Part shown: positions 1,000 through 35,263 of the stretch, in pieces
How the letters are laid out: each line of letters starts with the position of its first letter
Position numbering within the stretch: the first letter of the stretch is position 1
Origin: Turneriella sp.
Lineage (GTDB): Bacteria; Spirochaetota; Leptospiria; Turneriellales; Turneriellaceae
Reading direction: 5' to 3'
Length of the DNA: 64,000 nt
NCBI GenBank assembly: GCA_019186965.1
Contig: JABARV010000013.1
Span: forward strand, 1,235 to 65,234
Notes under the pieces: model-generated
Told to the model about the DNA's origin: nothing
The model's database searches: none
What the model saw: only the letters and a program-made list of their open reading frames with translations
Translations under genes and position numbers: made by a program

Positions 1000-1212
1000 C
1001 TAACGCGGAATTTACCTGACGTTTGGTGACGCTTGTGTCATTATTTTAGTCTGTAAAGCCCTTTTGCGTCACCAAATGTGCCCGAAGCGCCTGTCCGAGC
1101 CCGGCAAAACCAAGCTCCCGCTTGGCCGGGCGCAGGGCATCTTTGGCGCGTAGGGCCGAGCACGCTCGCCAACGGAGTGCGAGCGCGCGCAGCTTGTAAA
1201 TATTGTTGTGCG
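1000..1212 (-). repeat. attC-like structured recombination site a (subfamily 2)
   Basis: CTAAC-GCGGAATTTAC at the left and CTTGTAAATATT-GTTGT at the right pair as an outer stem. Three internal hairpins follow: TTTGGTGACGC..GCGTCACCAAA, GCCCGGC..GCCGGGC and GCTCGC..GCGAGC. The GGCCGAGCAC motif is conserved. Confidence 0.75.
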
Positions 1213-1217
1213 CAGTT

Positions 1218-1853
1218 TCATGTTCGGTCGCGATATTGCTTAACCATTTCTTGGATCGGTCGCAGATCCCATACAAAATTAACTTTTATACCCACATAGC
1301 CATTAAGCAATTCTGTATCGGTTCTTCCGGCTCGTTCGAAGAGGTTAGTATAGGTTAGGGCTGTAATGAGTTCGAGATTAAAATAGTAAGCGGACAGAGC
1401 ATTCTTTTCTGAGTCTGCATTAAGTTTAAGTCCAATGCTTGTCTGCCAGATCGCGCTATACCCGAAAGCATAGTAATCGACACCATTGGGGTTAGCCTTT
1501 TTTTCAAAACGACCAAGAGCAAATGTAGGGCCGTACCGCAGATATAATGTGTCATTCAAATCTATAAATCGGTGGTATTCAGGACCAGCGCCGACAAAAA
1601 TTCCCCGGCGACTAAAGTCATCATACAATTGGCTGGTTATAAGATCGATTCCTAAGCCAAAATACTGATTGTTCTTTCGCCAACCGACACCCTGGAAGGC
1701 GCCGAGGGTCGCGCTTTTGGGGGCACTCGCAAAGGGATATCCGGCTGAAACATTGAAATCGAAGGAAAGACCGGAAAGGTCGTTCTTGGCCGCTAACAGT
1801 TGCGTGTAAGTAACAGCCAGGATAAATATTATTTTGATCGAAATTTTCTTCAT
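1218..1853 (-). CDS. Hypothetical secreted protein, possibly an outer-membrane beta-barrel
   Basis: This is ORF 1218..1880 trimmed to the ATG at 1853 (MKKISIKIIFILAVTYTQLLAA signal peptide), with GGGAGA upstream. The sequence is Gly/Tyr/Phe-rich with alternating hydrophobic residues. Confidence 0.6.
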   Translation of the reverse strand: MKKISIKIIFILAVTYTQLLAAKNDLSGLSFDFNVSAGYPFASAPKSATLGAFQGVGWRKNNQYFGLGIDLITSQLYDDFSRRGIFVGAGPEYHRFIDLNDTLYLRYGPTFALGRFEKKANPNGVDYYAFGYSAIWQTSIGLKLNADSEKNALSAYYFNLELITALTYTNLFERAGRTDTELLNGYVGIKVNFVWDLRPIQEMVKQYRDRT

Positions 1854-1875
1854 TAAATCTCCCGTCATAAAATTG

Positions 1876-2125
1876 CGCACAACGTTGGATTTACGAGAAG
1901 TTTTGGCGGCGCACTATGTCAAATCTTTAATTGCGGTAAATGTATATTCAGCCGCCAAAATTTGCCCGGAGCGCCTGTCCGAGCCCGCCTAATGCAGCCC
2001 CATAGGGCGGTGGGCGCAGGGCATCTTCGGCGCGTAGGGCCGAGCACACGCGACGAGTCTTCGAGTCTCCGTCTTCGGTGGAGCAACGGCACCGCAGGGA
2101 GCGCAGCTCGTAAATCTTGTTGGGC
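1876..2125 (-). repeat. attC-like structured recombination site b (divergent, longest copy)
   Basis: ACAAC-GTTGGATTTACGAG at the left and CTCGTAAATCTT-GTTGG at the right. Internal hairpins and the GGCCGAGCAC motif are present. Confidence 0.7.
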
Positions 2126-2140
2126 GTAGGTCGCGAGAGC

Positions 2141-33936: not shown

Positions 33937-34070
33937 ATAGAAAACCCATAACAGCATCAGCAACGAAGCGAAAGGGTAGAGACAGTGCAGCTAAAACGCC
34001 TCAGGCACAGTTGCAACAACGCCGCCAAGCGCCGACACGATGTCGGCGAAGTACAAAGGCGCAATTATTT

Positions 34071-34295
34071 CAGACAACGTTGGATTTACAAGAAGTTGAT
34101 GGTGCGTCGCACAATAAATACAGTCTCCTTTCGAAAGCCGCATATTGACGCACCATCAATTTGCCGAACCCACAGCGTTGCGCCGCACCGAATGCACGTC
34201 ACGTGCGTGCGGCGTCAACGCTTCTTTGTGGGTGAGGCCGAGCACGCGACCCAACGGAGTGGTCGCGCGCGCAGCTTGTAAATCTTGTTGTCTGA
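34071..34295 (-). repeat. attC-like structured recombination site h' (exact copy of site h)
   Basis: Matches 9908..10132 from ACAAC onward wherever compared (offset +24163). Confidence 0.85.
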
Positions 34296-34411
34296 AGTAA
34301 ATGCGCCTTTCAGCGCGGGCACGGACGCCCGCGCGGCCCCCTGTGATGAGACCTTGTTTAGGCGATAGCTTGAAATTCAAAGTTGATTGCGCGCGATTCT
34401 GATTGACATGA

Positions 34412-35176
34412 TTGCAGCTAGCTGTGGTATACGGCGTGAAAGCTTACCATCGATCAAGCCTATTTGCAAAGCAGGTCTCTGTTTTCCTTTTTGCGATCTG
34501 GATGGCAAACCTAAACGCGACAGAATCGGCCGTGTATGTCGATAAATTCAATTATGTGATTGGGAGGAAAGCCCCCTCAAAAGATGCCGAATCCATAGTC
34601 GCAATACCATTCGGCACAAAGCTCTTCTGTAGACCAGATGGGCCAACGGAATCTATCATGTCAATGACAGGGCAATGGTATTACTGTAAGGATATTAAGG
34701 GTTACGTGTTTGGCCCGTTACTGACCGCAAGTCTGCCAGAAAAATCGAAATTACGGATGCGTTTAAAAGAAGGTTTTGTTTCGGATGCACATGGTCATAG
34801 CGGCACATTTTACCAGCTGCTAGCCAAGAACAAAACGGAATTCAGAGGTACGGAATATCTGGGCATAGCGGGAGAGCCGGAAAAAATTCCTGTGAAGGAT
34901 AAAGGTACTTACACTATCGAAAGTAACTATTTGATTATCACACGGCACGGAGAAAAGGCAGGAACCTACCGGTTAAAGTGGCATCCAAAAATCAACGCAT
35001 TTGTGGACGAAGAAGATTATAATACGGTTGATAAGATTTATCCAAAAATGGTGTTAGGAGACAAACGATATCAAATTAACCGCGAGCTTTGTGTTTTGGA
35101 AGAAGTAGAAGATATAAACGATAAACCGTTTCGAGTCTACGGCGGAGAAAGTTATTCTCTATACTGTCCCCAATAA
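34412..35176 (+). CDS. Hypothetical protein (copy 2 of the duplicated unit)
   Basis: The translation is identical to that of 10249..11013. Confidence 0.55.
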   Translation: MQLAVVYGVKAYHRSSLFAKQVSVFLFAIWMANLNATESAVYVDKFNYVIGRKAPSKDAESIVAIPFGTKLFCRPDGPTESIMSMTGQWYYCKDIKGYVFGPLLTASLPEKSKLRMRLKEGFVSDAHGHSGTFYQLLAKNKTEFRGTEYLGIAGEPEKIPVKDKGTYTIESNYLIITRHGEKAGTYRLKWHPKINAFVDEEDYNTVDKIYPKMVLGDKRYQINRELCVLEEVEDINDKPFRVYGGESYSLYCPQ

Positions 35177-35263
35177 AGCTGCAACGGAATGAATTGCATC
35201 GGTTGGGCGGACGCGTCGCCACGGATGGCGACGGAGTACAAAGGCGCATTTATTTCAGACAAC

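Follow-up and report, generated by a model that had tools for sequence, protein, structure and literature searches.

The DNA analysed here is a 64,000-nt window of Turneriella sp. (assembly GCA_019186965.1, contig JABARV010000013.1, positions 1,235–65,234 of the forward strand). It contains an array of at least 14 cassette units that extends up to coordinate 35263 and lies beside the gene of a Xer-like tyrosine recombinase; all coordinates are positions in the window. The array is probably integron-like, with a folded single-stranded attC-like recombination site in which a long R stem is marked by a wobble pair. Judged by sequence, the system is not a canonical integron in two defining features: the recombinase lacks the insertion specific to integron integrases (IntI), and the sites lack extrahelical bases. 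It is plausible that the long R stem and the wobble replace the features that mark the strand in canonical integrons, and we infer that their role is in strand choice.

On the + strand, each unit is organized in the order of a structured repeat of 195–235 nt, the B end (GTT..., to the right of the repeat), the genes, and the A' end (...AAC, to the left of a repeat) (Table 1). The long open reading frames of the cassettes are mostly located on the minus strand and read away from the attI-like end of the array, with few exceptions such as 31924–33936 (+). The 14th cassette (34287–35263) is a duplicate of cassette 10124–11100 and has identical ends.

Complementarity of the cassette ends

The two ends of each cassette form inverted repeats, which are 18–25 nt long in the 14 cassettes of the window. 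The initial annotation had listed 13 such pairs, and all of them were read by script with the same coordinates and sequences. Position 11 is G in the B end and A in the reverse complement of the A' end in every pair, as had been claimed for the 13, and the 14th cassette follows the same rule. The half-visible leftmost unit, which ends at 1004, has the A, and the pair 12369/19675 contains the 1-nt indel that had been ascribed to it. Mismatches in the window pairs are confined to positions 9–11 and a few positions near the outer end. The ends had been called private to each cassette. This holds for positions 4–7, 9–10, and 13 onward, but positions 1–12 form a semi-conserved arm with the consensus GTT-D-K-S-Y-G-M-M-(G/A)-T.

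Additional arrays were found in metagenomes with a search pattern that covers the conserved 3' part of the repeat up to GTT; the pattern recovers 10 of the 14 repeats in the window and no shuffled sequences. The pattern stops at GTT, and therefore positions 4–30 of both ends were unconstrained by the search. At least 120 unrelated contigs bear the repeat (L083–L202); the population figures given below refer to the matches listed, together with the window. The unique ungapped complete cassettes, of which 12 are from the window and 35 from metagenomes (47 in total), have inverted repeats of 17–25 nt. Position 11 is a G·T pair on the + strand in 47 of the 47 cognate pairs, so the rule proposed from the window extends to further cassettes. 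The strand asymmetry of this mismatch had been recognized before, and the G·T occurs on the strand that is expected to recombine. Positions 1–9 and 12–17 are Watson-Crick pairs in 45–47 of the 47 cassettes, whereas pairing fades beyond position 17. Position 10 is T·T in 12 cassettes and G·T in two. The sporadic mismatches of the stem are, on the + strand, G·T in six instances and A·C in one. Among the unique B copies, G8 is present in 148 of 149, G11 in 146 of 149, and T12 in 125 of 149 (~84%). The reverse complements of the unique A' copies contain A11 in 84 of 89 sequences and C in the remaining five, which include shifted cases with a 1-nt indel.

The 47 cassettes contain 32 distinct heptamers at positions 4–10 and 42 distinct pentamers at positions 13–17. 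The diversity of the pentamers indicates that the pairing of positions 13–17 is kept by covariation and not by a common sequence. Cognate ends match on average at 7.7 of the 10 positions 13–22, compared to 2.6 of 10 for 3080 non-cognate pairings. Non-cognate ends that are adjacent in an array differ little from random ends, with 3.85 versus 3.74 matches out of seven at positions 4–10, and 1.45 versus 1.47 out of five at positions 13–17. The two outcomes that the initial annotation had named as refuting its claim, non-cognate complementarity as high as cognate complementarity and failure of the G/A rule in further cassettes, were both looked for and did not occur. The G/A rule is also obeyed in the Turneriella metagenome-assembled genome (MAG) L081, despite the strong divergence of its repeat. 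The first cassette of L081, which encodes a Lamassu-like defence system, has the ends GTTAGGTGCAGTTGCCCCGCCC and GTTAGGTTCAATTGCCCCGCCC.

The wobble occurs in two flavours. In the first, the B end reads MMGT and the A' end MMAT, position 10 is paired, and position 12 is T. In the second, the B end reads MTGN and the A' end MAAN, position 10 is T·T, and position 12 is free. In both flavours, G11 of the B end always has a T neighbour. A function of A11-T12 as part of a start codon was set aside, as G13 is present in only ~30% of the copies.

Terminal inverted repeats flanking each unit are also a property of transposons and miniature inverted-repeat transposable elements, and could arise from the insertion of the repeat into palindromic targets. 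We give these origins next to no weight. A transposon was rejected because the inverted repeats differ from unit to unit and the cassettes encode no transposase; 42 different pentamers among 47 cassettes would be unreadable for such an enzyme, and a cassette takes its structured repeat along when it moves. Insertion of the repeat into a palindrome was rejected because it is the cassette, and not the repeat, that the complementarity spans.

Unit boundaries and the predicted folded site

The boundaries of the units are set by two cassettes, each of which is present at two locations. The identity of the duplicated cassette extends from ...ACAAC/GTTGG to ...ACAAC (the slash marks the boundary) and includes the repeat on the left, whereas the two copies differ in what follows on the right, which is a repeat in one case and the attI-like sequence in the other. 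L081 also contains the 7.3-kb efflux cassette 12369–19675, beside a different repeat and a different neighbour, and the two sequences part directly after CCTAACGT. In agreement with the initial annotation, the units act as integron-type cassettes. As delimited by these comparisons, the mobile unit is the repeat together with B...A', and the putative crossover is positioned in or adjoining AA/C. A crossover at this place implies that the two ends of a unit can meet only in an excised circle, where B and A' would join a single repeat, which accounts for complementarity that spans the cassette and not the repeat. The boundaries at the AAC/GTT box also put the predicted crossover inside the long stem of the circle, as had been suggested. 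The orientation of the genes, the position of attI, and the AA/C rule of the units indicate that the + strand is the equivalent of the integron 'bottom' strand (5'-...AAC, hairpin, GTT...-3').

The duplicated cassette and its repeat occupy 9916–11100 and 34079–35263, the latter being the first, attI-proximal cassette of the array. The duplication suggests recent excision and re-integration, or copying. The 7.3-kb cassette encodes an RND/metal-efflux system and is 75% identical in nucleotide sequence over 4.5 kb to positions 1–5230 of L081, where it adjoins the Lamassu-like defence cassette.

The consensus structure of the repeat, derived from an alignment of 37 diverse copies, is a four-way junction, with compensatory double changes in 33 of the 47 predicted pairs. 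Stem P1 is composed of the AAC/GTT box, an imperfect centre (G·T, a 2-nt bulge, and G·T), and an 11-bp L stem, and P2–P4 are three hairpins. The L stem is formed by GATTTAC, three covarying pairs, and a G-C pair, so that the site reads AAC-GTTG-GATTTAC...GTAAATC-TT-GTT. The 11 pairs of the L stem are continuous and no conserved extrahelical base was found in it; two to three of the 37 copies have an extra base. The column pairs 4-230, 8-229, and 21-91 are G·T on the + strand in 34–35 of the 37 copies, and would be A·C on the other strand. The junction contains the invariant motifs CCGAG.AC and CGCAGC (columns 163–170 and 195–200, for example 8291–8298 and 8323–8328 in the window), which are candidate sites of sequence-specific protein contacts.

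Covariation as strong as that in the repeat is typical of structured RNAs, and the G·U that corresponds to the wobble is a legitimate RNA pair. The ends could thus pair in a transcript, as part of a closed-loop mRNA or an antisense RNA, with the repeat functioning as a structured RNA. This explanation is very unlikely and was rejected. The strand with the conserved wobbles is antisense to the majority of the cassette genes, which leaves A·C in the sense of the mRNA; the repeat has no Rfam match at gathering or permissive thresholds; and the boundaries of the units coincide with the AAC/GTT box of a tyrosine recombinase, beside a recombinase gene.

Sites reconstituted by joining the cognate ends were folded as both strands using DNA energy parameters. 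The fold of the + strand is more stable in 23 of 23 sites, on average by 5.3 kcal/mol, and a repeat joined to cognate ends is 14 kcal/mol more stable than it is in its array context. The energies of the R stem are −16.6 and −15.1 kcal/mol for the two strands, and would be −18.7 kcal/mol if position 11 were a Watson-Crick pair. Stabilization of the correct strand by the wobble alone was set aside on the basis of this 1.5 kcal/mol difference.

The poor pairing of the R stems in the array context implies that excision needs completion of the arm, and this could be achieved within the single-stranded array if the cassette looped out and its B end paired with its own A' end. The 3' half of one repeat would then meet the 5' half of the next, with a complete R arm for excision, and neighbouring repeats are similar enough in the L box (GATTTAC/GTAAATC) for pairing between them. 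We consider such looping improbable. A stem of 17 bp would have to hold loops of 0.3–9.6 kb closed, and folding within one repeat is favoured by the intact four-way junction and by the covariation of three bases in the L stem.

Recombinase and attI-like site

The array ends at 35263 with the sequence ...CAGACAAC/TCCTTTTCTACGTATTGC, and the gene of the 408-residue recombinase begins 90 nt further on and is transcribed away from the array. The best-matching model of the recombinase is of the XerA type. The protein is below the cut-offs of the integron-integrase models, and its match to TIGR02249 falls into two stretches with a score of 178 bits (cut-off 265). The integrase VchIntIA (PDB: 2a3v) aligns in two blocks, and its residues 175–243 face only 28 residues of the recombinase; the IntI insertion is therefore missing. 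In contrast, the alignment with Pyrococcus XerA is unbroken. The IntI-specific insertion was found in none of the 19 aligned relatives. The predicted structure has ordinary Xer-type core-binding and catalytic folds, and the nearest solved structures are those of VchIntIA and XerA. Residues 19–75 and 79–132 are confidently predicted as a three-helix N-terminal domain (predicted local distance difference test score ~90), which is followed by a disordered linker. The domain has no match in Pfam. It may serve as an additional DNA-binding module that contacts, for example, the invariant motifs of the junction.

The closest homologue, with 70% sequence identity, is the enzyme of L081, which likewise adjoins an array. 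The next homologues have 55–60% identity over about two-thirds of the query, and are encoded in an FKBP-ZapA-MlaA neighbourhood of Leptospirales genomes without arrays. These FKBP-ZapA-linked proteins are presumably housekeeping Xer-like enzymes. No arrays were found beside the distant relatives P0004, P0006, P0010, P0017, P0026, and P0028, of which P0004, P0006, and P0017 are in the conserved FKBP-ZapA neighbourhood. A scan of genome contigs with generic Xer motifs identified 80 unrelated XerA-like loci, and the repeat is present in none of them. Neither a recombinase nor an attI was found in the at least 120 metagenome contigs, which are short and contain only arrays. A relic of the inverted 3' half of the repeat is located at 8000–8110 (−) of L082, 2 kb upstream of a homologue of the recombinase that resembles the housekeeping enzymes; the 4.8-Mb genome of L082 has no array.

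Directly downstream of the recombinase gene is a DprA-family gene (36694–37506, +), the product of which processes single-stranded DNA during transformation, and this is followed by a tRNA gene (38425–38495, −). The cassettes of 7.3 and 9.6 kb are much bigger than typical integron cassettes. The 9.6-kb cassette 19886–29535 contains several genes and a fluoride riboswitch at 27962–28028 (−), which scores 49 bits, above the gathering score.

Table 1 Features of the cassette array and its recombinase locus
Feature	Coordinates	Strand	Cassette	Remarks
A' end	980–1004	+	window-edge	Reverse complement GTTAGGTGCCATG..., A at position 11
Structured repeat 1	1005–1204	+		attC-like core, four-way junction
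B arm	1205–1222	+	1205–1883	G at position 11
A' arm	1866–1883	+	1205–1883	+ strand T at position 11
Structured repeat 2	1884–2118	+		30-nt insertion
B arm	2119–2139	+	2119–3252	
A' arm	3232–3252	+	2119–3252	
Structured repeat 3	3253–3459	+		
B arm	3460–3481	+	3460–5616	
A' arm	5595–5616	+	3460–5616	
Structured repeat 4	5617–5816	+		
B arm	5817–5838	+	5817–7139	
A' arm	7118–7139	+	5817–7139	
Structured repeat 5	7140–7347	+		
B arm	7348–7369	+	7348–8131	
A' arm	8110–8131	+	7348–8131	
Structured repeat 6	8132–8339	+		
B arm	8340–8357	+	8340–9025	
A' arm	9008–9025	+	8340–9025	
Structured repeat 7	9026–9232	+		
B arm	9233–9255	+	9233–9915	
A' arm	9893–9915	+	9233–9915	
Structured repeat 8	9916–10123	+		Moves with cassette 10124–11100; second copy 34079–34286
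B arm	10124–10147	+	10124–11100	
A' arm	11077–11100	+	10124–11100	
Structured repeat 9	11101–11302	+		
B arm	11303–11321	+	11303–12158	
A' arm	12140–12158	+	11303–12158	
Structured repeat 10	12159–12368	+		
B arm	12369–12387	+	12369–19675 (7.3 kb)	One base shorter than its partner
A' arm	19656–19675	+	12369–19675	End also present in L081
Structured repeat 11	19676–19885	+		
B arm	19886–19903	+	19886–29535 (9.6 kb)	
A' arm	29518–29535	+	19886–29535	
Structured repeat 12	29536–29736	+		
B arm	29737–29754	+	29737–30057	
A' arm	30040–30057	+	29737–30057	
Structured repeat 13	30058–30252	+		
B arm	30253–30277	+	30253–34078	
A' arm	34054–34078	+	30253–34078	
Structured repeat 14	34079–34286	+		
B arm	34287–34310	+	34287–35263	First (attI-proximal) cassette
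A' arm	35240–35263	+	34287–35263	Double-stranded form is the R arm of the attI-like site
attI-like region	35264–35352			...ACAAC/TCCTTTTCTACGTATTGC; motif TTTCT..GTATTGC common to L081
Tyrosine recombinase	35353–36579	+		Xer/IntI clade, 408 residues, no IntI-specific insertion, extra N-terminal three-helix domain

Proposed mechanism and comparison with known systems

In the mechanism that we propose, a cassette would be excised as a circle, and its + ('bottom') strand would fold so that A' and B zip into the long R stem. The R stem would lead into the imperfect centre, which contains a 2-nt bulge and two G·T pairs, and from there into the L stem and the four-way junction. The arm at positions 2–12 is semi-conserved and has 11 bp, with an invariant C/G at a distance of seven bases from the predicted cut. 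The L arm, which ends ...TAAA, is located across the imperfect centre of 5–7 nt. Positions 2–12 may represent an arm of the type that is bound by Xer enzymes. One recombinase monomer would bind this arm and cleave between A and C, one strand would be exchanged with the double-stranded attI-like site, and replication would resolve the junction, as in integrons and CTXphi. The wobble would place T on the cleaved strand opposite G, whereas the other strand, if folded, would have C opposite A. It would break the symmetry of the near-palindromic arm at its outer edge and so mark the correct strand. Positions 13–17 may serve as a clamp that holds the wobble, and the frequent T·T or 1-nt bulge at positions 9–10, inside the helix. 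With the ends of neighbouring cassettes unpaired, the full site would exist only in the circle, and arrays would be comparatively inert while circles would be good substrates. Since neighbours do not pair, integration should be favoured over excision. In this mechanism, attI would take its R arm from the A' end of the cassette that is currently first, which would explain why an A' end has to be a competent arm, with T11.

Several points weigh against this mechanism. The wobble alters the energy of the R stem little, by the 1.5 kcal/mol between strands, and therefore discrimination would have to be achieved by protein recognition and not by stability. The central region, with GTTG opposite TT, is strand-asymmetric itself, and this asymmetry might be enough to determine the strand. 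For excision from the array, the enzyme would have to rely on R stems in which only about half of the positions pair. The association of the recombinase with an array is seen in two loci only, the window and L081, and a simple scan of the attI region detected no sigma-70 promoter. The crossover is resolved only to within the conserved AAC(G), and circles, single-stranded substrates, and the cleavage position are deduced from sequence.

The small thermodynamic effect of the wobble is also compatible with a requirement for the identity of the base instead of the geometry of the pair. The enzyme may need T at arm position 10 (site position 11) of the cleaved strand, in the folded site as well as in double-stranded attI. 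The G in the B end, which puts C on the other strand, would then only inactivate a mirror-image pseudo-arm, and stop cutting of the repeat on the wrong side, whether it is duplex or folded. The conserved positions of the outer arm are 8, 11, and 12, and with each integration the A' copy takes over as the R arm of attI; both points fit this explanation. However, it leaves the obligatory pairing of positions 13–17 (46–47 of the 47 cassettes) and the tolerated T·T or bulge beside the wobble unexplained, and we consider it unlikely. It largely overlaps with the wobble-marked stem that we favour, because both are about strand choice.

The array shares the general organization of canonical integrons. 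A divergent recombinase gene lies beside co-oriented cassettes, and each cassette has its own imperfect-palindrome site with R''(...AAC)/R'(GTT...) and L''/L' boxes. The AAC/GTT box is at the boundary of the unit, and the first bases of the cassette complete its own site in the circle. In the site, an imperfect spacer separates the R stem from the L stem and the distal part is branched, and the favoured fold is that of the strand in which 5'-...AAC flanks the hairpin on its 5' side. Canonical attC sites fold as bottom-strand hairpins composed of an R box, an unpaired central spacer, an L box with two extrahelical bases near it, and a variable terminal structure. The canonical R box has 7 bp, 5'-RYYYAAC-3' (PMC7439510), and the choice of the attC strand rests on extrahelical bases (PMC2727003, PMC5027507). 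The I2 helix, or additional domain, is held to be essential for the recombination of single-stranded attC (PMC4792948, PMC8138268, PMC7790495; also Messier & Roy 2001, as listed in PMC4889954). In PMC4792948, PMC8138268, and PMC7790495, the IntI-specific domain is presented as the key innovation for single-strand recombination. The initial annotation had likened the wobble to the extrahelical bases of canonical attC, but the array is not a canonical integron. The recombinase has no IntI-specific insertion or I2 helix, and the sites have no conserved extrahelical bases. The R stem has at least 17 bp, compared to the 7-bp R box (PMC7439510), with an invariant G·T at position 11. The site of 195–235 nt plus arms forms a four-way junction with the invariant CCGAG.AC and CGCAGC, and the cassettes are up to 9.6 kb long.

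Some extension of the R stem exists in class 1 integrons, for which ten cassettes from three plasmids (L210–L212) served as a control. In about half of the ten, the 5' end of the cassette pairs with its own R'' flank beyond the 7-bp box, reaching 12 bp in aadA2, 13 bp in catB3, 11 bp in an unnamed cassette, and 9 bp in blaOXA-1. However, the extension is variable (0–6 extra bp) and sometimes absent, it never reaches 17 bp, and it has no fixed mismatch position. The integron papers examined contain no statement about such an extension that we could find, and our literature search found no description of these arrays or of the position-11 rule. The initial view that the feature has not been described for integrons thus stands in this respect, but has to be qualified by the pairing of 8–13 bp in class 1 cassettes. 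The new element is a fixed wobble in an obligatory stem of 17 bp or more, and not the extension as such.

CTXphi, an IMEX phage whose folded attP(+) is recombined by XerCD at dif, resembles the array in other respects. Its Xer recombinases, which lack an I2-like domain, act on a folded single strand that mimics a duplex and has no extrahelical bases (PMC4792948). Both systems have an imperfect central region, and the single-strand exchange resolved by replication, described for CTXphi (PMC4792948), would also apply to the array. Some R arms of the array read ATTGCGCACAA, which may be compared with the XerC arm of Escherichia coli dif, GGTGCGCATAA. In contrast to CTXphi, the array is not a phage, has a dedicated recombinase and its own attI-like site instead of hijacking the housekeeping XerCD at dif, and its site is a four-way junction of ~200 nt. 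The array system joins the platform logic of integrons with a CTXphi-like style of substrate.

The pdif sites of Acinetobacter plasmids are conserved 28-bp double-stranded sites used by the host XerCD. Gene modules located between inverted Xer-type arms are common to the pdif plasmids (PMC7399989) and the array. The inverted sequences of the array differ in that they are cassette-specific beyond 12 nt and flank a directly repeated structured element, and their obligatory wobble is sensible only in a folded single strand.

It is possible, though doubtful, that the array represents a second, independently evolved integron, which originated from a Xer-like enzyme of Leptospirales and uses neither the I2 helix nor extrahelical bases, but a duplex-mimicking R stem of at least 17 bp and a site that is complete only in the circle. 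The single wobble of the stem would be read at the outer edge of an 11-bp Xer-type arm and would mark the strand that recombines. According to present models (PMC4792948, PMC7790495), integron integrases gained the recombination of single-strand hairpins through an I2 helix that reads extrahelical bases. A natural array of more than 14 cassettes appears to reach the same end without that domain or those bases. If this is true, the array offers a directly testable alternative solution to strand choice. Because its site is intermediate between a duplex-mimicking hairpin like that of CTXphi and a true attC, it is also a possible window on the origin of integrons from Xer systems. Programs for finding integrons may miss such arrays if they rely on the IntI-specific domain and on limits to the length of attC, in which case a reservoir of cassettes would be uncounted, including those for defence systems, metal efflux, and fluoride resistance. 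A site completed only in the circle points to a simple means of biasing recombination towards integration, and could serve in the design of tools for structure-specific recombination.

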